Shown here: piece after piece, positions 7,440 through 58,804 of the stretch
Numbering within the stretch: position 1 is the stretch's first letter
Layout of the letters: every line of letters starts with the position of its first letter
Assembly: GCA_045539895.1 (NCBI GenBank)
Contig: JAZQGE010000055.1
Span: 1,733-65,732, forward strand
Direction: 5' to 3'
DNA: 64,000 nucleotides
Source: Acutalibacteraceae bacterium
Lineage (GTDB): Bacteria; Bacillota; Clostridia; Oscillospirales; Acutalibacteraceae
Notes under the pieces: model-generated
What the model saw: the letters and a program-made list of their open reading frames with translations, nothing else
Database searches by the model: none
What the model was told of the DNA's origin: nothing
Position numbers and translations under genes: made by a program

Positions 7440-8873
7440 ATGACACTTAAAGAAAAAGCACAGCGTGCCGCAGCTTCGGCTGTACTTGAGCAATCTTTAA
7501 AATATATCAAAAAAAATCCGCACGAAAACCTTGTAAAGCTTGTCGATAAGGTTGAATCCTTTGCCGGTAAGGTTTTTCCTGCAAAAAATTTTGATAAATT
7601 CCGCGAAGGTGCAGCTGACCCTGACAATGTTTACACTCAGCTTGTACTTCGTGCAATCAATGACCTTGACCCTGGTGTTTTTAATGGCATGGCAATGGCA
7701 TTAGGTTTAGGTGTTGCCGCCGGAACAAAAACAGTAAGAGAAAATCGAGAAAAGTATCATTGCAATATTCCTTTTATTACTCTTATCGACCCGACAAGCG
7801 CCTGCAACCTCAAATGTAAAGGCTGCTGGTCAGCAGAATACGGTCATAAGCTCAGACTCAGCTATGAGGAAATGGAATCTATTGTTGAACAGGGCCGTGA
7901 GCTTGGCACACACCTTTACATGTTTACCGGCGGAGAACCGCTAATCTGTAAAAAAGAAATTCTCAAGCTTTGCGAAACATATCCGCAGTGTGCTTTCCTT
8001 GCCTATACAAACGCAACTCTTATTGACCAACAGTTCTGCGACGATTTAAAGAGAGTCGGCAACCTTGCACTTGCAATCAGCATTGAGGGCGATGAAGAAA
8101 GCAACGATTTCCGCAGAGGTGACGGTGCTTATAAAACCTCCGTTGAGGCTATGGAGCTTCTTAAAAAGAATGGCTGCCTTTTCGGTATTTCCGTTTGCTA
8201 CACAAGCAAGAATATATATTCTGTCACAAGCGACGAATTCCTTGACGATATGATTTCAAAGGGTGTTATGTTCAGTCTTTATTTCAATTATATGCCTCTT
8301 GGTAAAGGTGCTCTGCCTGAGCTAATTCCCGACCCCGAACAAAGAAAATATATGTATAAGAGAATCCGCGACCTCAGAAATTCAAAAACAGGTAAATCAA
8401 TGTTCATTATGGATTTCCAGGGTGACGGAGAATATGTCGGCGGTTGTATTGCAGGCGGCAGAAACTATTTTCATGTAAATTCTGCAGGAGATATTGAGCC
8501 CTGCGTTTTCATTCACTTCTCAGATTCAAATATCCGCACTCATACTTTACTTGAGGCACTGCAGAATCCGCTGTTTATGTCGTTCTATAAAAATCAGCCG
8601 TTTAACGATAATCACATGCGTCCCTGCCCGATGCTTGAAAACCCCGATTATCTGTGCAGAATTGTTAAAGAAACAGGCGCAAAATCAACCGACCTTATTG
8701 ACCAGGAATCTGCAGAGGACCTTTGCGCTAAGTGCAGAAAATTTGCAGAAGAATGGGCACCTGTTGCAAAAGAGGTATGGGAATCCACACCGCATAAGCC
8801 CAGCAAGACTTACTACTACCGCGACACTCCCGAAGGTAAGGCTGAGCTTGAAAAAAAGAATAGCGAAGAATAA
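7440..8873 (+). CDS. Radical SAM protein of unknown function
   Basis: 477 aa. CxxxCxxC motif in TSACNLKCKGCWSAEYG. GGEPL SAM-binding motif. Additional C-terminal Cys residues (GGCIAGG...EPCVF...MRPCPM) suggest an auxiliary cluster. Confidence 0.75.
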   Translation: MTLKEKAQRAAASAVLEQSLKYIKKNPHENLVKLVDKVESFAGKVFPAKNFDKFREGAADPDNVYTQLVLRAINDLDPGVFNGMAMALGLGVAAGTKTVRENREKYHCNIPFITLIDPTSACNLKCKGCWSAEYGHKLRLSYEEMESIVEQGRELGTHLYMFTGGEPLICKKEILKLCETYPQCAFLAYTNATLIDQQFCDDLKRVGNLALAISIEGDEESNDFRRGDGAYKTSVEAMELLKKNGCLFGISVCYTSKNIYSVTSDEFLDDMISKGVMFSLYFNYMPLGKGALPELIPDPEQRKYMYKRIRDLRNSKTGKSMFIMDFQGDGEYVGGCIAGGRNYFHVNSAGDIEPCVFIHFSDSNIRTHTLLEALQNPLFMSFYKNQPFNDNHMRPCPMLENPDYLCRIVKETGAKSTDLIDQESAEDLCAKCRKFAEEWAPVAKEVWESTPHKPSKTYYYRDTPEGKAELEKKNSEE

Positions 8874-9941: not shown

Positions 9942-11048
9942 TCAGTCCTTCTTGAATCTCATCGGAAGAATAAGGAAAAGGAATCTGTCACCCTGAGTAG
10001 GAAGAATAAGAATAGGTGCAGCGCTGCTGTTCAGTTCAATTTTAACTTCATCTGAATCGCACACACGAAGAGCATCAAGAAGAAGCTTATTATTAAAGCC
10101 TATTTCAATCTTATTACCCTCATATTTACAGGGGAAGCTGTCATTAGCCGTACCGAGGGCAGTAACAGAAGAAATTCTTATAATATCATTATCAAAAATA
10201 AATCTTACAGGACTCTTGAATTTATCTGTAATAATAAGACTTGTTCTGTCAATACTTTCAATCATCTCGCGTGTGTTTACAACAGCCGTTGAAGTGCAAG
10301 AAGCGGGAATTGCATTTTTATAGTTTAAAAATTCACCGTCAAGAAGTCGTGAAACAATGCTGTAGTTTCCGATTTCAAAAACAATGTGTCTTTTACCTAC
10401 ACCAAGTGAAACTGTTTCTTCATCATCGCCTATAAGCTTTGTAACTTCATTAAGTGTTTTTGCAGGTACTACGAAGCTTAGCTCATCACCCATATAGTTT
10501 ACAGACTCTGTTCTCATAGCAAGACGAGAGCCGTCAACAGCAACAAGGCGGATAAGATTCTGAGTTATTTCAAACTTGACACCTGTGTGAACAACCTTGC
10601 TGTCATTGACCGAAACAGCAAAAATTGTCTGGCGCACCATATCCTTTAATAGCTTCTGATCAATAACAACGGGATAACCGCCGCTTACAGTGGGAAGCTC
10701 CGGAAATTCGTTACCGTCAATGCCGATAAGTGAATATTCTGCTTCTCCTCCTCTAATAGTTGCAAGAAGTCTTTCATCAGTTTCAATATAAATCTGATCA
10801 CCGGGAATTTTTCGTACTATGTCACAAAGAATTTTTGCATTTAAAATAATTGCACCCTGCTCAACAACACGGCAAGGAATGGATGTACTGATGCCTACTT
10901 CAAGATCATAGCCTGTAAGAAGAAGCTCATTACCTATTGCTTTAATGAGAATACCTTCAATTGCAGGAATTGTGGTTTTGTTTGAAACTGCTCTTTGAAC
11001 ATTAAGGCATGCTTCACTGAGTACAGCGGTTTCACAGTAAATTTTCAT
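9942..11048 (-). CDS. dnaN: DNA polymerase III beta sliding clamp
   Basis: 368 aa. It follows dnaA. N-terminal LSEACLNVQRAVSNKTTIPAIEGILIKA and overall three-domain length match DnaN. Confidence 0.95.
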   Translation of the reverse strand: MKIYCETAVLSEACLNVQRAVSNKTTIPAIEGILIKAIGNELLLTGYDLEVGISTSIPCRVVEQGAIILNAKILCDIVRKIPGDQIYIETDERLLATIRGGEAEYSLIGIDGNEFPELPTVSGGYPVVIDQKLLKDMVRQTIFAVSVNDSKVVHTGVKFEITQNLIRLVAVDGSRLAMRTESVNYMGDELSFVVPAKTLNEVTKLIGDDEETVSLGVGKRHIVFEIGNYSIVSRLLDGEFLNYKNAIPASCTSTAVVNTREMIESIDRTSLIITDKFKSPVRFIFDNDIIRISSVTALGTANDSFPCKYEGNKIEIGFNNKLLLDALRVCDSDEVKIELNSSAAPILILPTQGDRFLFLILPMRFKKD

Positions 11049-11106
11049 GTCAGGTTCCCTCCGGTATAAGAGATATAGTTAATTATTCAGTAGTAGTATT
11101 AGTGTC

Positions 11107-11270
11107 TGTGAAATTTGTGGAAAAGTTCTTTAAACATTGAAACAGCTTAAAAAACGAAAAAATTGAAATGTGAAAATTTTAAGAAAAGTTTTTTACACTT
11201 TCCGCGTGAAAAATTAGAATGTGGAATATGTGAAAAAATCAATGTGGAAAGTGAAGAAAAGAGTGGAAAA
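11107..11270. promoter_or_regulatory. oriC: DnaA-box cluster in the dnaA-dnaN intergenic region (part of oriC)
   Basis: Repeated near-consensus DnaA boxes, written as the reverse of TTATCCACA: TGTGGAAAA (11116), TGTGAAAAT (11169), TGTGGAATA (11220), TGTGAAAAA (11229), TGTGGAAAG (11243), AGTGGAAAA (11262). The intergenic region is AT-rich and non-coding. Confidence 0.7.
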
Positions 11271-11279
11271 AATTTTTCA

Positions 11280-12584
11280 TCAGTTCGGCTTAACATTTTT
11301 CATAATATCGGTAATAATTGTTTTAAGAGAATAATTATTTTCCTTTTCATTTTCAATTCTTCTGTAAGCATACATAACAGATGAATGGTCGCTTAATCCG
11401 AAAACCTCTGCAACTTTTTTGTTTGTAAGAGGTGTCATTTCACGGATTATATACATTGCAACATGTCGGGGAAGAACATATTTTGCATCGTGCTTTTTAC
11501 CTTTTATTTCTTCAACCGTAACACCGTATGTGCGTGAAACTTCATCTATAATTTTATCTATCAAAACAGGTGTGGGATCGCCTTCGCTGAAAATATCTCG
11601 TATAGCTTTTTGTGCAGTTGCAAGGTTTGGTGCTTCGCCAAGATGCATATATGCCTTCATCTTTTTAACTGTGCCTTCAAGCTGACGGATATTATTTTTA
11701 ATTTTTTCTGCAATAAAAAGAATTATCTGAGGGGGAATTTCAAGACCGTAGGACTCAGCCTTGCTTTTAATAATAGCAACTCTTGTTTCAAGGTCAGGCG
11801 GCTGAATGTCAGCTATAAGACCGCTTTCAAATCTGTTTCTGAGTCTTTCCTCAAGTGTTGCAATTTCTTTCGGGGGACGGTCAGATGTAAGAACAATCTG
11901 ACTTTTTGCTTTTACAAGTGTTTCAAAGGTGTGGAAAAATTCAAGCTCGGTTGCGGGCTTACCGGCAATAAACTGAACGTCGTCAACAAGAAGAACATCA
12001 GCATTGCGGTATTTATTATGAAAAACAGATGTATCTTTTTTATTCTGAAGATAATCAATAAGTTCATTCATAAAATCCTCGCTGCGTACATATATAATGT
12101 ATGCATCAGGATTATTTTTAAGAATCTCGTTGCAGATAGCATTAAGAAGGTGGGTTTTGCCAAGACCCGAATTGCCGTGAATAAAAAGAGGGTTATATGT
12201 GTTACCGGGGTCTGATGCAACAGCAAGAGAAGCTGCGTGAGCAAATTTATTAGAATCACCTACAATAAAATTATCAAAGGTGGATTCATTAGTGTCTGAC
12301 AGTTTGAATTCTTTCTGAGGTTCTTTCTTTGTGTTTTTCTGTTGTTTGGGCATTACGTTAACATTTATCTTAAAGCCCATTACATTTTCGAAACATTCTT
12401 CAAGCAGAGGAATAAACTTATCATTGATGATTTTACATCTGAATGGATCATCCGTCAGCACAACGGAGTCACCGTCAAAGCTATCAAGAGCAAGCTCATT
12501 AAACCAGACAGAATAAACAGTTTCGGAAGTATTCCTTTTAAGCTCTGCTTTTACGTTTTCCCATAACTGATAAACAAGGTCCAT
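11280..12584 (-). CDS. dnaA: Chromosomal replication initiator DnaA
   Basis: Walker A GNSGLGKTHLL. Box VII/sensor region LRNRFESGL. C-terminal DnaA-box-binding helix (VLPRHVAMYIIREMT...S...V). I chose the start at ATG 12584 (MDLVYQLWENV, AAGGA upstream). The ORF-track GTG at 12707 adds 41 atypical residues. Confidence 0.93.
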   Translation of the reverse strand: MDLVYQLWENVKAELKRNTSETVYSVWFNELALDSFDGDSVVLTDDPFRCKIINDKFIPLLEECFENVMGFKINVNVMPKQQKNTKKEPQKEFKLSDTNESTFDNFIVGDSNKFAHAASLAVASDPGNTYNPLFIHGNSGLGKTHLLNAICNEILKNNPDAYIIYVRSEDFMNELIDYLQNKKDTSVFHNKYRNADVLLVDDVQFIAGKPATELEFFHTFETLVKAKSQIVLTSDRPPKEIATLEERLRNRFESGLIADIQPPDLETRVAIIKSKAESYGLEIPPQIILFIAEKIKNNIRQLEGTVKKMKAYMHLGEAPNLATAQKAIRDIFSEGDPTPVLIDKIIDEVSRTYGVTVEEIKGKKHDAKYVLPRHVAMYIIREMTPLTNKKVAEVFGLSDHSSVMYAYRRIENEKENNYSLKTIITDIMKNVKPN

Positions 12585-12759
12585 ACCGTACACATCCTTT
12601 CTTATAATATTTTTTTCATTACTATAAACACTGCGGGGTGAGCAGTTGAGATAGTATTCATTGTAAGGCTTATTACTTTTACCGTAACAGCCATAAGAGT
12701 ATATCACAAATCGGCCTCCTTTTCAACTTTTGCGGGAGGAGAAAGTTTTGAACAATATC

Positions 12760-16089: not shown

Positions 16090-16944
16090 ATGCGAAGCTT
16101 TTTCAGAAGCAATCGCTTCAAGGGCTTTCTTGGTGTTTTTGCTGTTTTGCTCATAGGTATTGTTTTTGCAGGTGTTACCGAAAACAGTGCTTCACCTGCT
16201 TCAACGGTTTTAGGTACTGTTTTTTCACCGCTCCAGAGTCTTTCTTCAGGCATTGCTGACAGTGTAAAAGAATTTTCTGTTTACTTCCGCTCTGCAAGAA
16301 GCTATGCGGACAGAGTTGCCGAGCTTGAGAAGGAGCTTGCAGACAGTCGCTCACAGATGGTTGACTATGAAAAAACAAAGCAGCAGCTTGAGCTTTATGA
16401 GGAATTCCTTGAGCTTAAAGAGCAAAATGAAGATTTTAAGTTTGCCAGCGCATCCGTCATCGGCAAGGACGGTACAGATGCGTTTGGTACTTTTACGCTC
16501 AATAAGGGTGAGCTCGACGGTGTAAAGGTTAATAATCCTGTTATATACGGCAAATATCTTGTCGGCGTGGTGGTGAAAGCTGCGCCGACTTATTGCGTTG
16601 TAAATACAATTCTCAACCCTGATGTAAATGTAAGCGCATACGAAGTGCGCACGCGTGAATCAAGCTTTGTCACAACAAATACCGAGCTTTCGGAAAAAGG
16701 ACAGTGCTGTCTGTCCGGTCTTGTTCGCTCCACTTCAATTGCACCGGGCGGCATTGTCTGCACCTCCGGTGTCGGCGGTATTTATCCTGCCGACCTGATA
16801 ATCGGTATTGTGGAAGAAGTGAAAAACGACACAACAAATATTTCGTCCTATGCTGTCATTAATTCACAGGTTGATTTTGAACAGCTGCGCGATGTTTTTG
16901 TTATTACCGAATTCAGAGGTATGGGCGTCGGTGATGTAAATTGA
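16090..16944 (+). CDS. mreC: Rod-shape-determining protein MreC
   Basis: 284 aa. N-terminal TM segment, coiled-coil, then C-terminal beta domain with GGIYPADLIIG. Sits between mreB and mreD. Confidence 0.9.
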   Translation: MRSFFRSNRFKGFLGVFAVLLIGIVFAGVTENSASPASTVLGTVFSPLQSLSSGIADSVKEFSVYFRSARSYADRVAELEKELADSRSQMVDYEKTKQQLELYEEFLELKEQNEDFKFASASVIGKDGTDAFGTFTLNKGELDGVKVNNPVIYGKYLVGVVVKAAPTYCVVNTILNPDVNVSAYEVRTRESSFVTTNTELSEKGQCCLSGLVRSTSIAPGGIVCTSGVGGIYPADLIIGIVEEVKNDTTNISSYAVINSQVDFEQLRDVFVITEFRGMGVGDVN

Positions 16945-17142
16945 CAAATTCTATTTAAGAATTTGTCAGCGATATAAATCCTTACAGATTTTCGATATAT
17001 CTTCGATTCAATATGTTGCTTCGCAATGCGATATGCACTGAGGTGCACGGAGGATTTAAATCATATCGCAGGCGAGTGTAACGAGCCTATATCGAAATTT
17101 GTGAAGCAAAATATATCGGGTGACCGACAGGTCACATATCGT
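16942..17142 (+). repeat. ATATCG-rich structured intergenic repeat, copy A (between mreC and mreD)
   Basis: Aligns position by position with 40092-40306 and in reverse with 45117-45281. Hairpins: TGACAAATTC/GAATTTGTCA, AAATC/GATTT, TGCAC/GTGCA nested inside GCGATATG/CATATCGC, and GTGACC/GGTCAC. ATATCG motifs recur throughout. The first hairpin starts on the mreC stop codon. Confidence 0.8.
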
Positions 17143-17179: not shown

Positions 17180-17725
17180 ATGATACCGCAGGCATGGAAG
17201 GAAAACAGACCGAAGATTATGAGAAGAGGCTGTTTCTTTCTTGTTGTTATTGCTGTTGGCATTCTGCAGATTTCCGATGTACTCCCCACCTTTTTCGGTG
17301 TGCGCTTTCTTCCGCTTCTTCCTCTGACCATTGTGCTCGGTATGTTTGAGCGCGAAACCTACGGACTTTATTACGGTCTGCTTGCAGGCATAATATGGGA
17401 CATGAATGTCGGTGAGGGCGACGGCTTCAATGCTTTTTTCTTTGCTCTTGTCGGCTTCACCTGCGGTCTGCTGATGACCTATCTTATGATGAACAATCTG
17501 ATAACTGCAGGCATCCTCTGCTTTTCATGGAGTATGATCTACTTTATTGTCAGCTTCATTATTTTTGTTGCGGCAAAGGGGATTGAAGGCAGCTTTTCTG
17601 TTTTTGTTTCCGATTATCTTCCTGCGGCTTTGCTCAACATTGTAACACTTCCGTTTTACTACTATACGGTGCGCGCTGTGATGAAAACCTTCAAGCTTAT
17701 GGAAAATGACGAGCTGTCGTTCTGA
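17180..17725 (+). CDS. mreD: Rod-shape-determining protein MreD
   Basis: About 181-aa polytopic membrane protein following mreC. Start chosen at ATG 17180, preceded by GGAGGAG. The ORF-track start at 17120 lies inside the repeat element. Confidence 0.8.
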   Translation: MIPQAWKENRPKIMRRGCFFLVVIAVGILQISDVLPTFFGVRFLPLLPLTIVLGMFERETYGLYYGLLAGIIWDMNVGEGDGFNAFFFALVGFTCGLLMTYLMMNNLITAGILCFSWSMIYFIVSFIIFVAAKGIEGSFSVFVSDYLPAALLNIVTLPFYYYTVRAVMKTFKLMENDELSF

Positions 17726-38436: not shown

Positions 38437-38765
38437 AACTTTTCAGCAATCTTTACTGCAAGGTCGAAGGCATTTTCTTTACTGCGGAGCACGATTACTC
38501 CGTTCTGGACTGCCCTGAGCTTTGCATCGTCATCAAAAGCGGAGTTTTCAGTGAGCAGAATGCAAGCAACATCGGTAAGCACAGCCACACCGATTGAGTT
38601 GACATTGCCCATAACCGTAAGCCAGCAGTCGCCTTCATTTGCCTTGGACATTACCCAGCTGAGAAGGTCGCCGCAATAGCCGCCCATAACCTCTTTGTCT
38701 GCCGCCTTATCGCCGCAGCAAAGCACTTCAAGCGAAAAATCGTCTATCAGATTCTGTACTGTCAT
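38433..38765 (-). CDS. DRTGG-domain protein
   Basis: 110 aa. Small DRTGG-like domain (CWLTVMGNVNSIGVAVLTDVACILLTE...). Overlapping stop/start with both neighbours. Confidence 0.6.
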   Translation of the reverse strand: MTVQNLIDDFSLEVLCCGDKAADKEVMGGYCGDLLSWVMSKANEGDCWLTVMGNVNSIGVAVLTDVACILLTENSAFDDDAKLRAVQNGVIVLRSKENAFDLAVKIAEKL

Positions 38766-40078
38766 TTCAGATCCTCTCCTTTTATATATCCGTCGTCTGA
38801 CCTGTAGGGTGCAGGTATAAACTCAAGGTCAAGACCGCTGAGCTCTTCGCGCAGACGGAAAACACAGTCTGTTTCCTTTGCAAATCCGCGGACAATATCG
38901 TCTGCAAGTGCTGCACATGAGGGTGCACCGCAGGTGCCGCAGTCAAGACCGGGCAATCGCTTTAAAATTTGCTGTTTCTCGGCCATTTTTCTCATTGCAG
39001 CAGGCACGCTGTCCGCGAGCTTCATAATGTCGGTTGCAACAAGCGGTTTAGTCCAATACATTTCGTCGGGTACATCCGCAGTGTCAAGTCTGTTGCACGA
39101 AACAGGAAGATATTTGCGAAGGCGCTTCATTCTTGCTTTTGCAACATACGGGTTTTCGTATGTAAGCGAGCCGCCTACACAGCCGCCCGTACAGGCGTTA
39201 AGCTCAATAAAGTCAATGTTGTCGAGCTTTTCGTCCTCAATTTCGTTGAGAATTTTTATAACATTTTCAATTCCGTCTGCGGCAAGGCAGTTGTCGCGCA
39301 GAAGTGCACTTGCTTCTCCTCCGCTGCTTGCCCAGCTTACTCCGATAACACCAGAATCCTGAATTGTGTCAACTTCTTTCAGGTGGTTCATCTGTGAAAG
39401 CAGTGCGGGGTAAATTTCTTTGATTGCAAAGGCACCGTTGATGTTGGAGCCGCCAAGACAAATCGGCGCTCTGATAGCGGTCATTTTTGCAGGGCAGGGC
39501 GTAATAAAGAATACGCCGATGTCGCTGTCTTCAAGACCTGTTTCAGCCTTTGCTTTTTCTCTTGCAAGGCGTGCTGCTATTTCCATGGGAGAGTTAAGCG
39601 GCACAACATGGTCGATAAGATTGGGAAAGTTAACCCTGATAAGCCTGACTATTGCCGGACAGGCAGAGGAAATTGCAGGTGTTTTAATCTGCCCCTGCTC
39701 AAACATTTTTCTTGTTGCGTCGCTTACAAGCTCTGCACCCTTTGAAACCTCAAACACATCGTCAAAGCCAAGGCCTTTGAGCGCGGTGAGCACATAGTCA
39801 ACATCGTCAAGATTGTTGAACTGGCCGTAAAGCGCCGGAGCAGGAAGCGCAATTTTGTATTTGAATTCGTTTATTCTATCGAGCGGCTCATACTCCGCAT
39901 ATTTTGCGTGGTGCGGACAGACATTTATACATTCGCCGCAGTCTATACATCTTTCTTTTATGATGTGTGCTTTACCGCCGCGCACACGGATTGCACCTGT
40001 GGGGCAACGCTTGATGCAGTTGGTGCAGCCGCGGCATTTATCGCGGTCAAGTCGCACGGAGTGGTAATAATCAGCCAT
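38762..40078 (-). CDS. [FeFe]-hydrogenase-like protein, putative sensory type (2x[4Fe-4S] ferredoxin N-domain, H-cluster domain, C-terminal Fe-S domain)
   Basis: Ferredoxin motifs CRGCTNCIKRCP and CIDCGECINVCP. H-cluster-like motifs SSACP (versus canonical TSCCP), TPCPAK and ELNACTGGCVGG. C-terminal CGTCGAPSC. Start set at ATG 40078 (MADYYHSV, AAGGAGG upstream). Confidence 0.75.
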   Translation of the reverse strand: MADYYHSVRLDRDKCRGCTNCIKRCPTGAIRVRGGKAHIIKERCIDCGECINVCPHHAKYAEYEPLDRINEFKYKIALPAPALYGQFNNLDDVDYVLTALKGLGFDDVFEVSKGAELVSDATRKMFEQGQIKTPAISSACPAIVRLIRVNFPNLIDHVVPLNSPMEIAARLAREKAKAETGLEDSDIGVFFITPCPAKMTAIRAPICLGGSNINGAFAIKEIYPALLSQMNHLKEVDTIQDSGVIGVSWASSGGEASALLRDNCLAADGIENVIKILNEIEDEKLDNIDFIELNACTGGCVGGSLTYENPYVAKARMKRLRKYLPVSCNRLDTADVPDEMYWTKPLVATDIMKLADSVPAAMRKMAEKQQILKRLPGLDCGTCGAPSCAALADDIVRGFAKETDCVFRLREELSGLDLEFIPAPYRSDDGYIKGEDLK

Positions 40079-40091
40079 AATATGCCTCCTT

Positions 40092-40306
40092 TGAATTTTA
40101 TCTGCGAAGCATATAAAATTCAGCGAGATAAATCCCTTGCGGGATTTTCGATATATATGTCGATTCGATATGTTACTTAGCAACGCGATATATGCTGCGG
40201 CATGAGAACAGGATTTATCTCATATCGCAGGCAAGATTTATCTTGCCTATATCGCAACCGAATGCAATGAGGTTATATCGTATCTGCCATCAGGCAGATA
40301 TATCAA
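40092..40306 (+). repeat. ATATCG-rich structured intergenic repeat, copy B (antisense to the surrounding operon)
   Basis: Colinear with copy A. Hairpins: TGAATTTTAT/ATAAAATTCA, AAATCCC/GGGATTT, ATGC/GCAT inside GCGATAT.../CATATCGC, AGGCAAGA/TCTTGCCT, and TATCTGCC/GGCAGATA. Stem sequences differ from copy A but pairing is maintained. Confidence 0.8.
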
Positions 40307-40312
40307 TTAATT

Positions 40313-40738
40313 TTAAAATGCGTTGATTTTAAGTGTCATAACAGTACCGACACCAAGCTCGGTCTGAATGTCCATTTCATCGCTGTATTTTTTGATGTTG
40401 GGCAGGCCCATGCCTGCGCCAAAGCCAAGCGCACGAATTCGATCGGGCGCTGTTGAATATCCCTCCTGCATTGCAAGTTCAACATTTTCAATGCCGGGGC
40501 CGTGGTCGGTCAGCACAACCTTTACATATTCGGGTGTGATTTCAACATCAATCTCACCGCCGCCTGCGTGAATTACAAGGTTGATCTCAGCCTCGTAAAC
40601 TGCAATCGCCGTGTTGCGTACTGCCTCAGGCGGAAAGCCTATATCCTTGAGTGTCTTTTTGATTTTGCCCGATGCTTCGCCCGCCCTTGTAAAGTCGGTG
40701 CCGTCCACTTCGTAATGCTGTTTAATAACTTCACTCAT
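40313..40738 (-). CDS. Anti-sigma-factor-like serine kinase (HATPase_c family ATP-binding protein)
   Basis: About 141 aa. HATPase motifs YEAEINLVIHA (N-box-like), DHGPGI (G1) and GFGAGMGLPN (G2). Start set at ATG 40738 (MSEVIKQ). Confidence 0.7.
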   Translation of the reverse strand: MSEVIKQHYEVDGTDFTRAGEASGKIKKTLKDIGFPPEAVRNTAIAVYEAEINLVIHAGGGEIDVEITPEYVKVVLTDHGPGIENVELAMQEGYSTAPDRIRALGFGAGMGLPNIKKYSDEMDIQTELGVGTVMTLKINAF

Positions 40739-41090
40739 GGTAACGGTGTGCACCTCCTCGCAGACCGTTTTCATAAAGAATACCGCAGGAAGTGAACATC
40801 TCTCGCTTTGTCCTGAGCAGAGGGATGCCGTTTTCTTCTGCAAGTTCAATCATGCTTTCGTCAGGTTTTTTGCCTCTTACGAAAACTATGCACTTCATAT
40901 CCATCATTTCGGCGGTGCGGACAACCTGAGGGTTGACAAGACCTGTCAGAAGCACAGCCTGCTCCTTGACATAGGCGAGCACATCGCTCATCATATCACT
41001 GCCGCAGGCAGAGATTACATCTCTGTCAAGAAATTCTTCGCCGTAAATAAGCTCGGCATCAAGAACTTTCATAATTTCGGAAACTTTCAT
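40731..41090 (-). CDS. DRTGG-domain protein
   Basis: 119 aa. LLTGLVNPQVVRTAEMMDMKCIVFVRGKKP is the DRTGG-type motif. Confidence 0.65.
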   Translation of the reverse strand: MKVSEIMKVLDAELIYGEEFLDRDVISACGSDMMSDVLAYVKEQAVLLTGLVNPQVVRTAEMMDMKCIVFVRGKKPDESMIELAEENGIPLLRTKREMFTSCGILYENGLRGGAHRYHE

Positions 41091-41142
41091 AATCGGTTTT
41101 CCTTTCGGTTTATATTTTTGGAAAATTTTTTATTAATCTTAT

Positions 41143-41997
41143 TCAGCAGCACTGTTTCTTCGCTGTTTTCTGTTTGATTTTGCCTGCAATACTGAAAAGC
41201 ACAAACATTACTGCGTTTACAGCAACAACGCTTGCGCCCGTCGGCAAATCAAAGCGGTATGCTGCAACAAAGCCGATGAAAAAGCTCAGCGCCGAAACAA
41301 CGGCAGAGCACATCACAACTCCGCGGAAGCTGCGGAAAAATCGCATTGCGGTGAGCGACGGGAAAATCAGCAGAGAGGAAATGAGGATTGCACCCATAAG
41401 CCTCATGCCCACAACAATAGTGACTGCGGTTAATATTGCAACAACCGTGTTGTAAAAAGAAACCTTTGTGCCTGTTGCCTTTGCAAAGCTTTCGTCAAAG
41501 GTGACACTGAAAATTCCGTTGTACATAAGCAGATACATCAGTATAACAACTGCAGAAAGCGCAATGCTTATAATCACATCGGATTTATCAATTGCAACAA
41601 TACTGCCGAACATATAACTGCCAACATCAATGTTGACATTGCCAGCAAGCTTAACCGTCAGCACACCAACCGCAATTGCCGTACCTGAAATGAGGGCGAT
41701 TGCGCTGTCGCCGTTAATGCGGCTGTTTCGGCTTATGCGAAGAAGAAAGAATGCCGCAACAATTACAACAGGGATTGCAATTTTAAGCGGTGCAATACCG
41801 GCTGCCGCGGCGACACAGAGTGCGCCGTAGCCTACATGTGAAAGTCCGTCGCCAATCATTGAAAAGCGCTTGAGCACAAGCACCGAGCCGAGCAGTGCCG
41901 CACACAGTGACACAAGAATGCCTACAAGCAGCGGAACGGTTAAAAATGAATATGAAAATATTTCGGTTATAGCTGTAATAAATGACATTTGGTTCAC
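41143..41997 (-). CDS. Metal (Zn/Mn) ABC transporter permease, ABC-3 family
   Basis: 284 aa with 8-9 TM segments. ABC-3 pattern (LKRFSMIGDGLSHVGYGA...). No cognate ATPase or substrate-binding gene is adjacent. Confidence 0.8.
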   Translation of the reverse strand: MNQMSFITAITEIFSYSFLTVPLLVGILVSLCAALLGSVLVLKRFSMIGDGLSHVGYGALCVAAAAGIAPLKIAIPVVIVAAFFLLRISRNSRINGDSAIALISGTAIAVGVLTVKLAGNVNIDVGSYMFGSIVAIDKSDVIISIALSAVVILMYLLMYNGIFSVTFDESFAKATGTKVSFYNTVVAILTAVTIVVGMRLMGAILISSLLIFPSLTAMRFFRSFRGVVMCSAVVSALSFFIGFVAAYRFDLPTGASVVAVNAVMFVLFSIAGKIKQKTAKKQCC

Positions 41998-42010: not shown

Positions 42011-42032
42011 ATGAATTGATAAATCAATTCAT
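42011..42032. promoter_or_regulatory. Perfect 10-2-10 palindrome just upstream of the permease RBS (candidate metalloregulator operator or RNA hairpin)
   Basis: ATGAATTGAT-AA-ATCAATTCAT lies 14-35 nt upstream of the start codon at 41997. Its function is inferred only from position and symmetry. Confidence 0.3.
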
Positions 42033-42450
42033 CGTAAATTACATCTCATACTTTTCAGAACATACATGAATTTATGCGGATAAATCCGCAGTTACTTTTG
42101 TCACGCGTTACAAAAGTAACCAAAAGAACTTTTTTAAGTTATAAGCACTCCACTACGGCTGACTAAATCAAATCCGCTCGGTTCAGCAGAACACAAAGGT
42201 GTGTTCTGCCACCGTAACGGCGGCGAAAATAAATCTGACATTCAGGCTTAATCTGTCCGCCTACGGTTCCCTCGCTCGTATCTGTGAATAAAGTGTAATA
42301 TCGTCAGCCTGTTCCGTTCGGGGTCACAGCATTATCATTTACAGGTACATAGCAGAGAACGGTCTTAACCGTTCCGCCGTAAAATTCATATGAATTCTAA
42401 AATATATATCTGTCATTCTGAACGCAAGTGAAGAATCTTGTTTAACTGTT

Positions 42451-43029
42451 TTAAAAAGTATATGTTTCGGGACAAACTTCCATAATCTTTTCACGAAGTG
42501 CAAGAAAATCCTCAAGCGCTTCGGGCTTTTGTCTGGGGTTACGGAGCAATGCTGCAGGGTGGAAGGTGCCCATCATAAGTGTACCGTTTTTCTCAATGAA
42601 CTGACCGTGCTGTTTGGTCACCTTGAAATCGGGTGATATAAGGCGGGTTGCAGAAATTCTGCCAAGGCACACAATGATTTTGGGCTTGAGCAGTCTTGTC
42701 TGTTCGCGAAGCCAGCCAATGCACATATCCTGCTCTGCGGGCAGAGGATCGCGGTTCTGCGGAGGGCGGCATTTTACCATGTTTGCAATGTAGATGTTCT
42801 TTTTTCTGTCAAGGTCAACGGCGGCAAGGAATTTGTCAAGAAGCTGACCGCCTCTGCCGACAAACGGCTCACCCTGCAGGTCCTCGTTCGCGCCGGGACC
42901 TTCACCTATGAAAAGTACCTTTGCATTTTCATTGCCCACTCCGAAAACAAGCTTTGTTCTTGTTTTTCCAAGCTCGCATTTCTGACAGCCCATGCAGTCA
43001 TTTTTGAGCTGTTCCCAATTATCATACAT
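42451..43029 (-). CDS. Uracil-DNA glycosylase, family 4
   Basis: 192 aa. [23 protein letters not shown] motif. N-terminal Cys pattern C..C for the Fe-S cluster. HPAALLR near the C-terminus. Confidence 0.85.
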
Positions 43030-45116: not shown

Positions 45117-45281
45117 GTGTACGGTCACTCGATATATTGTGCTAATCGCTCAATTCGATATAAATCCTTTTGTCTTGTGCCGGCAGGCACATATCGAGCC
45201 GAAGGCATATCGAGTCGCTGAAAGCAACATATCGAAAATCCGCAAGGATTTATATAGAGGCAATTTATTCTGATAAATTGC
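45117..45281 (-). repeat. ATATCG-rich structured intergenic repeat, copy C (shorter, minus orientation)
   Basis: The reverse complement aligns with copies A and B. Hairpins: GCAATTTAT/ATAAATTGC, AAATCC/GGATTT and GTGCC/GGCAC. ATATCG motifs recur. The terminal TATATCGAGTGACC matches copy A. The first hairpin abuts the GH127 stop codon. Confidence 0.7.
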
Positions 45282-45282
45282 A

Positions 45283-47100
45283 TTATTTCCTTGTCATCCA
45301 GATAATCATATCCGTTTCGCCGCGGTTAGCATAGGCATAGTACGGTATGAGCTTTATTGTCTGCGGCTCAAAGTTTTCGTCCCAGTCATAATAAAGCTCG
45401 TCAGATTCAGGCTTGATATAACCGTCAAGCTCAACTGTCATAACACCCATTCGGTTATCGTCGCTGACTCTTGCAGCTTTGGTCGGGTCAACATAAAGTC
45501 CCTTGAGCGGGAGCGGATTGTCCACACCCTCTGCACAGTAAACAATCGGACCTCTTTGTACGGCAATTCTGCCGCAGCACTGACGCACTTTCGGGTTAGC
45601 CTGAACATAGCGTACGGGCATATCCATTTCGAAATTTATAACGTCACCGTCGGTGACATCAATGTAAATGTAACCGTTTTTCTTTGCGTATTCTTCCTTG
45701 TTTCTGAGCATACAGCTCTTGCACCAGCCGGGAATACGGATTGCAAGAGTGAAGTTGCCTGAACAGGTGATTTCAACCTCGCCGCTTTTCGGATAAACAG
45801 TCTTTACGGAAATTTTCTTGTTACCGTCTTCAAATTCGCCGCAGATAAACTGGTGAAGCCAGATTGTATCTTCATTTGCCGTGCAGGCAAGCTCACCTAC
45901 CGAAGCAATAAGCCTTGTCACATTGGGCGGACAGCAGGAGCAGTCAAACACCTCAAGTCGCTGCGTAATCGGATAGAAGGGCTTGTGTCTGTTATCGTGA
46001 GGGTTATTGATTCCTATAAGGTCAACTTCAATTGAGTTGTCGTAGAAGAAGCCCTTACCGTCAAGTGATAAGCCGCAGAGAAAGCCGTTATAAAGCGCAA
46101 GCTCTGCAATGTCGGCATATTTTCTGTCGGGCTTTATTGCGTACATGCGTTTTGCGAAAAGAACAAGACCTATATCGGCACAGGTTTCGCAATAAGATGA
46201 GGTTTCAGGCAGGTCATAGTCGCCGAGGAAGGCTTCGCCGACGCAGGTCTGACCAAGACCGCCTGTGATATACATGCGTTTTTTAGCCATAGAATCAAAA
46301 AGTTTATCTGCCGCATTGAAAAGTGATTCGTCGCCGTATGCTGCGGCAAGGTCTGCCATGGCGCAGTAAAGATAAACCGCACGCACGCTGTGTCCGACAG
46401 CGTCTGTCTGCTCTCTTACCGGAACATGAGCCTGAGAATAAAACTCCTCTTCTGTTTTGCCTCTCTCTTCAATGAAGTGGCGGCTCAGCTCAAGATAGCG
46501 TTTTTTGCCCGTAGCCTGCCACAGCTTAACAAGCGCAAGCTCAATTTCTTCGTGACCGGGGCTGTAAAATTCTGCCCACTTGTCGGTGACAAATGCCTTT
46601 TCAATCATGTCGGCATAGTCGCACATCAGCTTTAAAAATTTGTCTTTGCCGGTTGCGTTGTAATATGCGACAGCCGCCTCCATAAGATGACCTGCACAGT
46701 AAAGCTCGTGGTTGTGCCTTGCGGTGAATCTGTCCTCAGGCTCGAAAAGAATGTAGCTGATGTTGAAATACCCGTCGTCCATACGGTTTTTCTCAATCAG
46801 GTCAACAACCTCATCAATTATTTTTTCAAGGTCCGGCGCAGGTGTTTTTTCTGTTATGTATGCCGCGCTTTCAATCCACTTTGCAATGTCAGAATCCCAG
46901 AATATGTGAGGGCGGTTGGGGTCGCCGTCCTTCCAGTCAAGTTTAAAGGCGTCAAACCTGCCTGTTTCCTTGAAACGGTCGTAAACGCTGTGAATTGTCA
47001 CCTCGCGGTTGATTTTCTGCTTCTCTGCCCAGAATCCGCCTGTGACAGCTGTATTTTTAAGAGGTATAGTTTTGCTAATTGCTTGCATATTAAGAGTCAC
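45283..47100 (-). CDS. Glycoside hydrolase family 127 (beta-L-arabinofuranosidase-like, DUF1680)
   Basis: 605 aa. HELYCAGHLMEAAVAYYNATG motif. Conserved Cys cluster region (FDCSCCPPN) typical of GH127. Confidence 0.8.
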   Translation of the reverse strand: MTLNMQAISKTIPLKNTAVTGGFWAEKQKINREVTIHSVYDRFKETGRFDAFKLDWKDGDPNRPHIFWDSDIAKWIESAAYITEKTPAPDLEKIIDEVVDLIEKNRMDDGYFNISYILFEPEDRFTARHNHELYCAGHLMEAAVAYYNATGKDKFLKLMCDYADMIEKAFVTDKWAEFYSPGHEEIELALVKLWQATGKKRYLELSRHFIEERGKTEEEFYSQAHVPVREQTDAVGHSVRAVYLYCAMADLAAAYGDESLFNAADKLFDSMAKKRMYITGGLGQTCVGEAFLGDYDLPETSSYCETCADIGLVLFAKRMYAIKPDRKYADIAELALYNGFLCGLSLDGKGFFYDNSIEVDLIGINNPHDNRHKPFYPITQRLEVFDCSCCPPNVTRLIASVGELACTANEDTIWLHQFICGEFEDGNKKISVKTVYPKSGEVEITCSGNFTLAIRIPGWCKSCMLRNKEEYAKKNGYIYIDVTDGDVINFEMDMPVRYVQANPKVRQCCGRIAVQRGPIVYCAEGVDNPLPLKGLYVDPTKAARVSDDNRMGVMTVELDGYIKPESDELYYDWDENFEPQTIKLIPYYAYANRGETDMIIWMTRK

Positions 47101-56246: not shown

Positions 56247-56267
56247 ATTTTATTCCTCTCCTTTTGT

Positions 56268-56312
56268 TTATTCTAATGCATTAGTACAATATTATTCTAA
56301 TGCATTAGAATA
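56268..56312. promoter_or_regulatory. Tandem palindromic operators upstream of the blaI-like gene
   Basis: TTCTAATGCATTAGTA (56271-56286, one mismatch) and the perfect 16-bp palindrome TTCTAATGCATTAGAA (56295-56310). Their centres are 24 bp apart, 25-64 nt upstream of the start codon. Confidence 0.65.
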
Positions 56313-56364
56313 AACTTGTCAAGAATAAATTTCAATTTGGCGGCGACTCGCCGACAAACTGAAA

Positions 56365-58380: not shown

Positions 58381-58777
58381 ACACACGGCGAAGAACAAAA
58401 CAAACAAAAATATTTAAAAGTGGCACGAGATAACTTGTGCCGCTTTTTTACTGTCATAAAGAAAAAAATAAAGTTTGTTTTTAGCTGTTTTTTCCTCCTC
58501 GGCGTATCGCATACACCTGTCGTCGGAAGAAAACAGCTTCTTCATCCGTGTCTGCTGCCCCTCCTTAACACACGGCGAAGAACAAAACAAACAAAAATAT
58601 TTAAAAGTGGCACGAGATAACTTGTGCCGCTTTTTTACTGTCATAAAGAAAAAAATAAAGTTTGTTTTTAGCTGTTTTTTCCTCCTCGGCGTATCGCATA
58701 CGCCTGTCGTCGGAAGAAAACAGCTTCTCCATCCGTGTCTGCTGCCCCTTCTTAACACACGGCGAAGAACAAAACAA
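58381..58777. repeat. Tandem direct repeat, about 187-bp unit x 2.1 copies
   Basis: Units are 58381-58567, 58568-58753 and a 24-nt partial third copy at 58754-58777. I count 3 substitutions between the two full units. Each unit contains a terminator hairpin. Confidence 0.9.
58422..58449 (+). terminator. Intrinsic terminator of the LOG gene (duplicated at 58609-58636)
   Basis: Hairpin GGCACGAG-ATAA-CTTGTGCC followed by GCTTTTTT. Confidence 0.75.
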
Positions 58778-58804
58778 AAGACTTGCGTAGTTTTTACGCA
58801 AGTC
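58778..58804. terminator. Bidirectional terminator downstream of rlmH
   Basis: Hairpin AGACTTGCGTA/TACGCAAGTCT with T-rich flanks on both strands. Confidence 0.7.

Follow-up and report, generated by a model that had tools for sequence, protein, structure and literature searches.

The 64,000-nt stretch of DNA analysed here, hereafter the window (positions 1,733 to 65,732 of contig JAZQGE010000055.1, assembly GCA_045539895.1, from an Acutalibacteraceae bacterium), carries three intergenic copies, termed A, B and C, of an array in which a short constant linker built on CGATAT alternates with small hairpins (Table 1). Copy A occupies the junction between mreC (open reading frame, ORF, 16090-16944) and mreD, lying in the sense orientation and ending 38 nt before the mreD start codon at 17180. 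Copy C, also in sense, begins 1 nt past the stop codon of a gene of the Pfam family GH127 (ORF 45283-47100). Copy B is flanked by two minus-strand genes (40313-40849 and 38762-40078; their products are a HATPase protein and an Fe-hydrogenase-like protein) and is hence antisense to its own operon, a placement overlooked in the initial annotation of the window. That annotation had described three colinear segments with ordered hairpins, the first starting on the mreC stop codon and the third abutting the GH127 stop codon in sense; reading of the sequence and alignment locate the segments where it had placed them, recover every hairpin it quoted and confirm both contacts with stop codons.

Three arrays in the window

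Within each copy, CGATAT is confined to the first half and ATATCG to the second. The hexamer CGATAT occurs 50 times in the window against 21 expected from shuffles, with 18 of the 50 occurrences inside the three copies, and the conserved core AAATCC-N-GATTTTCGATAT is found twice where 0.05 occurrences are expected. All three copies fold more stably than their shuffled counterparts (z = -6.7, -5.4 and -4.4 for A, B and C, respectively). A profile hidden Markov model built from 39 copies outside the window together with A and B, with C excluded, matched only A, B and C in the 64-kb window and found no fourth copy there; C was retrieved with E = 1e-22 over profile positions 4-142 only. Copy B departs from the canonical form in its first linker, CGAGAT, which pairs with the centre GGATTTATCTC, and in a degenerate last linker, ATATCA. 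In copy C the first linker is degenerate (CTATAT) and the left half leads into a centre fused to the first right linker; there are two right linkers, and the 3' end falls within the 5' arm of the third and last right hairpin. Orthologous copies exist in other genomes: that of copy B, with the same flanks, is locus L032, and in that of copy A (L109) the 5' hairpin also begins on TGA with a different stem (TGATAATTTCTG / CAGAAATTATCA).

Table 1. Array copies in the window, their components, and an isolated hairpin related to a further array family.
Feature	Position	Strand	Description
Copy A	16942-17141	+	Refined limits
Copy A, 5' hairpin (P0)	16942-16968	+	TGACAAATTC / GAATTTGTCA; first 3 bases are the mreC stop codon
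Copy A, left half	16969-17062	+	Conserved hairpin AAATC-loop-GATTT
Copy A, left linkers (T/G)CGATAT	16970, 16993, 17009 (degenerate, CAATAT), 17029	+
Copy A, left-half variable hairpins		+	ATC-TTC-GAT, GTTGC-TTC-GCAAT, GCAC-TGAG-GTGC
Copy A, centre piece	17052-17062	+	GGATTTAAATC
Copy A, right half	17063-17141	+	ATATCG linkers at 17063, 17089, 17113, 17136
Copy A, right-half hairpins		+	AGGCGAG..CGAGCCT (tandem G.A), ATTTG..CAAAT, GTGACC-GACA-GGTCAC
Copy B, complete	40092-40305	+	P0 TGAATTTTAT/ATAAAATTCA; three left and three right hairpins
Copy C, 3'-truncated	45117-45281	-	P0 GCAATTTAT/ATAAATTGC
Lone hairpin	42013-42030	-	GAATTGATTTATCAATTC; P0 of the AATTCATG/AAATCATG array family

A dispersed family related to Gut-1

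The three copies belong to a family far larger than the trio originally proposed. When one genome per species was scanned for the core pattern, at least 120 further loci emerged, almost all in Oscillospiraceae, Acutalibacteraceae, Faecousia, Fimenecus and other Clostridia metagenome-assembled genomes (MAGs) from animal and human guts. All but about four of the matches listed are family members, and the counts of copy forms, contexts and orientations given below refer to these listed matches. Their flanking genes form 179 clusters out of 197, which rules out that the copies represent a single orthologous locus. A phage element is likewise ruled out, with four true matches, two of them distinct, among 2.9 million viral contigs. 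In the literature, the hexamers were found only in primers and in sequences without relation to the element. Near-identical copies can occur within one genome (e.g., L039 and L070), and a real contig end is no more than 250 nt away from about 18 of the 124 matches, in keeping with repeats that break assemblies.

A complete unit measures about 175-215 nt and consists of a subfamily-specific P0, often abutting a stop codon, followed by four TCGATAT linkers, a centre and four ATATCGA linkers, with short perfect hairpins between the linkers. The true linker is therefore a heptamer, which reads TCGATAT in the left half and, as the reverse complement, ATATCGA in the right. In canonical form, the left half reads (T/G)CGA(T/G)AT, AAATCC(C)-loop-(G)GGATTT, T, and then three times CGATAT plus a variable hairpin, with a T between each of these hairpins and the next linker; the centre, (G)GGATTTAT(A/C)TC, is complementary to the first linker plus AAATCC; and the right half repeats ATATCG, A and a hairpin three times before a final ATATCG. 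Among 111 untruncated copies, 48 have four linkers in each half, more than show any other arrangement; there are also left-only forms (19-25 copies), module duplications, truncations and nested insertions. The G/C variant of the seventh linker base changes at every linker of a subfamily, and in the GCGATAT/ATATCGC subvariant both halves change together.

Each subfamily has its own P0, and some have their own terminator and about 130 further conserved bases. In the subfamily with P0 GCGTGTTATCCTTAACGGAGAACACGC (L010, L013, L018, L030, L036, L056, L076, L087, L095, L105, L106), a conserved terminator AGAGCAAGAATAGAAGG...CTCTTGCTCTTTT lies downstream, followed by some 130 conserved bases (...TTGTAATATGGGGTTGGGCTTAGCCCATTTGCATTTGAC...) in which no reading frame is preserved and which match nothing in Rfam; the approximately 190 nt conserved downstream of the GCGTGTTATCC subfamily gave no Rfam match. 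At the unrelated loci L018, L048, L051 and L105, the loop of a right-half hairpin houses a second small repeat, about 40-45 nt long and containing GGGGTTCCCC...TTTTGGGG. The MAG SIG450 contains hybrid elements (L005, L078, L088, L090), in which a left half of the CGATAT type precedes a GGACGGAT...ATCCGTCC hairpin; a AATTCATG-linker array and then tandem GCATTCT heptamers come next in three of them (L005, L078, L090), and L088 has another continuation. This marks the left half as a separable module.

The retention of pairing under changing stem sequence, initially claimed from the three window copies, extends to the family at large. An alignment-free test on 48 distinct canonical copies from outside the window, with stems anchored on the linkers, gave 93-100% Watson-Crick pairs per position for the first four pairs of hairpins L1, L2 and R1-R3, against 31-84% when partners were shuffled, with two to four pair types per stem position and 32-42 distinct stem sequences per hairpin slot. 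In a second count, in which structure pairs were scored on a MAFFT alignment of 41 copies, 96.9% of positions were paired versus 76.9% after shuffling and 27-51% after sliding the partners, and the covariation score of 0.528 (0.158 shuffled) was reached by none of 500 shuffles. RNAalifold independently recovers the right-half hairpins with many compensatory pairs. The long-range helix between the first linker and the centre also covaries, occurring as CGATAT-TATATC (48 times), CGAGAT-TATCTC (23) and CGAAAT-TATTTC (once) without a single cross-combination, so that the fourth position of the first linker is T:A in 48 cases, G:C in 23 and A:T in one.

Pairing between left and right linkers is of a different kind. 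A nested ladder of linkers is predicted with a probability above 0.5 in 17-29 of the 48 copies, and DNA energy parameters yield the same predicted ladder, but this pairing is a thermodynamic prediction involving invariant bases, which covariation cannot test. The same applies to the GCGATATG...CATATCGC stem that the initial annotation had described as conserved, as it consists of two invariant linkers. The seventh linker base does not reveal the register of the ladder, since its G/C variant is shared by all linkers of a subfamily and every register fits equally well. The central claim of the initial annotation, that pairing is kept while stems change, thus holds, but covariation by itself does not separate RNA from single-stranded DNA.

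The proposal that the element matches no RNA family held at curated Rfam thresholds, which gave no match in the whole window. At relaxed thresholds, however, the Gut-1 model (RF01706) aligns end to end with the equivalent stretch and strand of A (16967-17039), B and C, scoring 23.4, 18.0 and 13.9 bits against a threshold of 50. Gut-1 was published in a single sentence, as a motif known from human-gut sequences only and without function (Weinberg et al., 2010; PMC2864571). Gut-1 loci were collected by scanning metagenomes for three GTGAAAT linkers and keeping hairpin-bearing matches; as a positive control, these score as bona fide Gut-1 (59-85 bits). Their plan comprises CGAAAT-AAATCCC-loop-GGGATTT, three hairpins with GTGAAAT, a centre GGATTTATTTC and four ATTTCAC linkers with hairpins. 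In particular, L138, L147, L170, L211 and L221 combine CGAAAT-AAATCC(C)-loop-(G)GGATTT with the centre GGATTTATTTC, as in the CGATAT family, and this sharing of sequence outside the linkers is evidence of homology and not of convergence. Judged by these sequences, the window element is a sister family of the described, uncharacterised Gut-1 motif and not wholly new. A third linker family, AATTCATG/CATGAATT (also AATTCATG/AAATCATG), is present at the mreC-mreD junction of L241, in the hybrids of SIG450 and elsewhere. At L033, a bona fide Gut-1 (7831-7912, 57 bits) shares an 8-kb block with a CGATAT-type array, and one genome can therefore carry two linker families.

Insertion, orientation and a companion gene

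The state of the mreC-mreD junction was compared among loci whose MreD is progressively less similar to that of the window. Both the window and L109 have a CGATAT array there. At 90% identity (L241), its place is taken by an array with AATTCATG/AAATCATG on the left and CATGAATT/CATGATTT on the right, ending in a lone ATATCG. Spacers without an array are seen at 75% (L242, 61 nt) and 57% (L244, 51 nt), with a different 210-nt insert at 62% (L243), and in the most distant homologs the genes are separated by 2 nt (L245, 55%) or overlap (L246, 40%). The tight junction presumed in the initial annotation is hence ancestral: the site was invaded and its content turns over, since the junction is tight in distant relatives and holds another array family in the closest one. 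The insert of L243 (1290-1501) contains two direct copies of CTGCGGA(T/C)AAACCTGCCGATAT and is otherwise unlike the arrays.

A second site is offered by the lone hairpin GAATTGATTTATCAATTC, which also heads the AATTCATG-type array at the L241 mreC-mreD junction. In L032, the orthologous site is occupied by a longer unit consisting of a hairpin, a left array (AAATCATG four times), a protein-coding gene described below, a right array (ATGATTT four times) and a second, similar hairpin; the window keeps the single hairpin only, and the insertion boundary at this site, between genes for uracil-DNA glycosylase (UDG) and an ABC-3 protein, falls within the repeated hairpin. The ends of the arrays themselves are 6-7 nt linkers only (CGATAT...ATATCG). 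Next to the hairpin, some 400 nt (42051-42450, minus strand) separate the present stop codon of the uracil-DNA glycosylase gene (42451-43029, minus strand) from tatgagatgtaa (42039-42050), a relic of its original 3' end that in L032 is the true end of the gene. This stretch, which ends in a hairpin plus ATAAATTCATG (42065-42089), looks like an insertion that gave the gene a new stop codon.

Arrays are not placed at random with respect to genes. The upstream gene is co-oriented with the array in 83 cases and opposed in 24. Between co-directional genes, 25 arrays are sense and 11 antisense, and between convergent genes, the commonest context and one with no downstream gene, 31 of 35 arrays are closer to the co-oriented gene than to the opposed one (median distances of 43 and 211 nt, p = 3e-6). 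Departures from Watson-Crick pairing are similarly one-sided, with 100 G.A pairs against 18 others, the G.A pairs being tandem, on one strand only and almost all in the right half. Together, the orientation bias and the one-strand G.A pairs constitute the main argument for a constraint acting on transcripts.

In all three linker families, arrays are found directly upstream of, or enclosing, a gene of about 120 codons that encodes a 23S rRNA intervening sequence protein (IVP or S23p; PF05635 23S_rRNA_IVP, equivalent to TIGR02436, 'four helix bundle protein'), the nearest solved structure being 2RLD. The gene follows CGATAT arrays by 17-40 nt at L008, L029, L044/L119 and L046, and stands behind Gut-1 arrays at L147, L211, L219 and L234. 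An abundant IVP clade (about 80% identity) corresponds to a single conserved carB-array-IVP-pyrK locus, and the independent contexts joining CGATAT arrays to IVP therefore number four, not dozens. At L032, L270 and L279, the gene lies between the two array halves. As an unbiased test, four homologs of the L032 IVP were chosen on protein similarity alone, and arrays were found at all four loci. Two enclose the gene between the halves (ABC-3/DRTGG and CbiQ/TruA contexts) and two have both halves upstream (PyrK and TRAM-methyltransferase contexts), and in all four the half with GNA loops, read on the sense strand, ends 10-15 nt before the IVP start codon. The ABC-3/DRTGG site belongs to the same operon as the window genes at 40313-41997, where the junction is tight. 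A possible relation of IVP to HEPN-like RNases was sought in Pfam, where PF05635 alone matched, even at E = 10. Gut-1-type arrays and IVP genes are often found directly 3' of same-strand tRNA genes (L147, L169, L179, L211, L219, L221, L116), in several cases with a strong terminator between the tRNA and the array.

Other features of the window were also noted. DnaA-box-like repeats (TGTGGAAAA, TGTGAAAA) fill the interval 11049-11282 between dnaN (9945-11048) and dnaA (11283-12707), both on the minus strand, and the window probably contains the chromosomal replication origin. A 187-nt tandem direct repeat, with two full copies (98% identity) and the start of a third, spans 58381-58778, and a 50-nt near-perfect palindrome without spacer, with 25-nt arms of 92% complementarity (GTTTATTCTAATGCATTAGTACAAT / ATTATTCTAATGCATTAGAATAAAC), lies at 56266-56315.

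A probable co-transcribed selfish repeat and its rivals

The reading that we favour, with a probability of roughly 60%, is that A, B and C are gene-less copies of a dispersed linker-hairpin array, a selfish element that is co-transcribed with its neighbours and folds as RNA, and whose linkers are recognised or processed. The array is most likely a co-transcribed, selfish structured repeat and a candidate platform for binding or processing. In mechanistic terms, gene-less arrays would be non-autonomous relatives of the IVP-carrying units, much as ORF-less 23S rRNA intervening sequences stand beside ORF-containing ones. They would be carried along in host transcripts, where each array would form a series of highly stable mini-hairpins, with the constant linkers either single-stranded or zipped from left to right into a ladder of junctions. 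The linkers would then serve as recognition or processing sites, for which the IVP pentamer may be the best candidate partner and a double-strand RNase the alternative. The effect on the host might consist of segmental processing or stabilisation of mRNA, with no specific regulation of mreD or other neighbours.

Several observations weigh against this reading. Transcription and RNA folding of the arrays are what we infer from sequence. The IVP gene adjoins a minority of arrays, none of them in the window, and to our knowledge the protein has no known biochemical activity. At several Gut-1 loci, read by eye, the array is located between a terminator on its upstream side and a promoter-like site downstream. 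No mobilising enzyme was identified, and comparison of filled and empty mreC-mreD sites yielded no clear target-site duplication. Further difficulties are also points in favour of the principal rival, a unit acting at the DNA level. Under this alternative, a DNA enzyme or binding protein would recognise the heptamer together with a GNA-loop mini-hairpin in single-stranded or cruciform DNA, using the top strand for the right half and the bottom strand for the left, as in the REP/BIME-REPIN sequences with RAYT, or the unit would be a recombination site; perfect stems would then arise from the stability of DNA hairpins or templated correction of quasi-palindromes instead of selection on RNA. Loops of the T..C class account for 101 of 144 on the left and none on the right, and G..A loops for 70 of 144 on the right and none on the left. 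The two halves are therefore inverted copies of one unit type. A C-G pair closes the G..A loops, as it does in d(GCGAAGC) mini-hairpins, and C-GNA-G loops are reported as the hallmark of very stable DNA mini-hairpins (PMC13037366). Pairs of G.T are as rare as A.C (10 versus 8 in about 1,700 pairs), which is unusual for a selected RNA and leaves no asymmetry from which to call the strand. About one quarter of the copies, including B, are antisense to their neighbours, so that both orientations relative to genes occur. The linkers are exact reverse complements in all three families and change jointly in GCGATAT/ATATCGC; insertion and replacement have taken place at a single site; and folding with DNA parameters predicts the same ladder. 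Kissing between the left T..C and right G..A loops was ruled out, their complementarity being no higher than in shuffles.

On the other hand, the strong bias in orientation and position relative to the upstream gene counts against a DNA-level unit, as do the tandem G.A mismatches kept on one strand. The GNA-loop half ends 10-40 nt before the IVP start codon, on the sense strand, at every array-bearing IVP locus examined by eye. Hairpins differ within one element, unlike the REPs recognised by RAYT, left-only forms and hybrids with a foreign right half exist, and a tblastn search with a single IS200 TnpA query, a weak test, found no IS200/Y1 transposase in 1.77 Mb of loci. We thus hold a DNA-level unit to be unlikely, while recognising in it the main rival of the co-transcribed repeat.

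Two further explanations fit the contexts of the arrays poorly. Rfam classes Gut-1 as 'Gene; sRNA', and a free-standing small RNA (sRNA) gene with its own promoter, acting in trans, would be consistent with the conserved and covarying structure, with the terminators near 81 copies, of which 40 have one in sense no more than 110 nt downstream and 18 have one upstream, and with the subfamily that has its own conserved terminator. Terminators proved ambiguous as a strand test, many of them being bidirectional. Such a gene is improbable given that no conserved promoter is seen, that A begins on the mreC stop codon and ends just before mreD and C starts immediately after a stop codon, that module number varies and truncations, nested insertions and antisense copies occur, and that an RNA acting in trans on one target would hardly be expected in many diverged copies per genome. 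Still harder to credit is a cis-regulatory switch in which the local AAATCC/GGATTT hairpin and a distal GGATTTATATC partner would compete, in the manner of an attenuator or riboswitch. The 5' arm variants AAATCC, AAATCCC and AAATCCGC are each matched by both a local and a distal partner, and the distal helix covaries, but the local hairpin is strongly favoured thermodynamically in 42-45 of the 48 copies, no conserved core resembling a ligand pocket is present, the neighbouring genes are unrelated and the commonest context, between convergent genes, has nothing downstream to regulate.

Returning to the co-transcribed selfish repeat, a bolder extension may be put forward as a speculation. Arrays and IVP/S23p might together form an unrecognised selfish element in which the toroidal four-helix-bundle pentamer recognises heptamer-linked mini-hairpins, as RNA or single-stranded DNA, and thereby promotes spread or processing; A, B and C would be its non-autonomous derivatives, and Gut-1 and the ORF-containing 23S intervening sequences would belong to the same system. 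If true, this would finally explain the role of a protein family that, over 30 years, has been known solely as 'rRNA intervening sequence protein' and as the Avd partner of diversity-generating retroelements. The arrays are in any case regular companions of 23S_rRNA_IVP/S23p genes, which offers a concrete and testable pairing of protein and nucleic acid. They are present in many copies in abundant gut Clostridia, where they have invaded conserved operons such as mreBCD and pyrimidine genes, and a covariance model would improve the annotation of gut MAGs, whose assemblies they break.

Comparison with known systems places the arrays near several classes of repeat. REP, BIME and REPIN sequences are short extragenic palindromes with a conserved short flank, arranged in inverted orientation, present in many copies, located mostly at gene 3' ends and co-transcribed. 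The arrays resemble them in their palindromic units with a conserved short flank, inverted arrangement, multiple copies and location 3' of genes, but their hairpins vary, only the 7-nt flank is constant and GTAG is absent. Conservation of the hairpin, as seen in REPINs, is not observed, with 32-42 stems per slot in 48 copies and different hairpins within an element. The gene associated with the arrays encodes a four-helix-bundle protein, in contrast to the RAYT of REP sequences. BOX elements of Streptococcus pneumoniae and other modular repeats or miniature inverted-repeat transposable elements (MITEs) have a variable number of modules, pairing ends, a dispersed distribution and gene-less derivatives. 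The arrays share the modular build with variable internal modules, the pairable ends and the dispersed, intergenic, gene-less copies. Longer relatives of the arrays exist in which the two halves enclose an IVP gene or are followed by one, and IVP is not known to be a transposase. Sequence relation to BOX is not evident, long terminal inverted repeats are absent, no target-site duplication was found, and arrays of the same genome may differ strongly from one another while carrying compensatory changes. The arrays of type III toxin-antitoxin systems consist of direct repeats of about 34-36 nt, nearly identical and in tandem, that precede the gene for an endoRNase toxin, whereas here only 7-nt linkers repeat, hairpins differ, the second half is inverted and the neighbour is PF05635/TIGR02436.

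The sister motif is Gut-1, an orphan in Rfam since 2010. The left half of the window element shares with it the alternation of linkers and three short hairpins, Gut-1 loci also having a centre and an inverted right half, usually with four plus four linkers, and some of them also the AAATCCC/GGGATTT hairpin and an IVP gene behind. The linker differs, GUGAAAU in Gut-1 and UCGAUAU in the window element. The published motif and Rfam model cover the left half only, that is, half of a larger modular element in two halves. At least three linker families exist, that of the window being previously undescribed, and the full architecture, the multiplicity of linker families, the mobility and the IVP partnership are new for elements of the Gut-1 kind.

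A further parallel is that with the ORF-containing 23S rRNA intervening sequences of Coxiella and Leptospira, in which an S23p gene lies inside an insert bordered by a stem and excised by RNase III; in Coxiella, heptamer repeats that vary in number immediately precede the start codon (PMC4990558). These sequences are inserted in helix 25 or 45, the window copies instead between protein-coding genes, and their continuous 28-bp stem contrasts with the branch hairpins of the arrays and their linker helices of 6-8 bp. The likeness lies in inserts treated as selfish, whose complementary borders would fold into a stem, with S23p between complementary halves at L032, L270 and L279 and without an ORF in the window copies, and it links the rRNA intervening sequences to similar inserts in mRNA operons.

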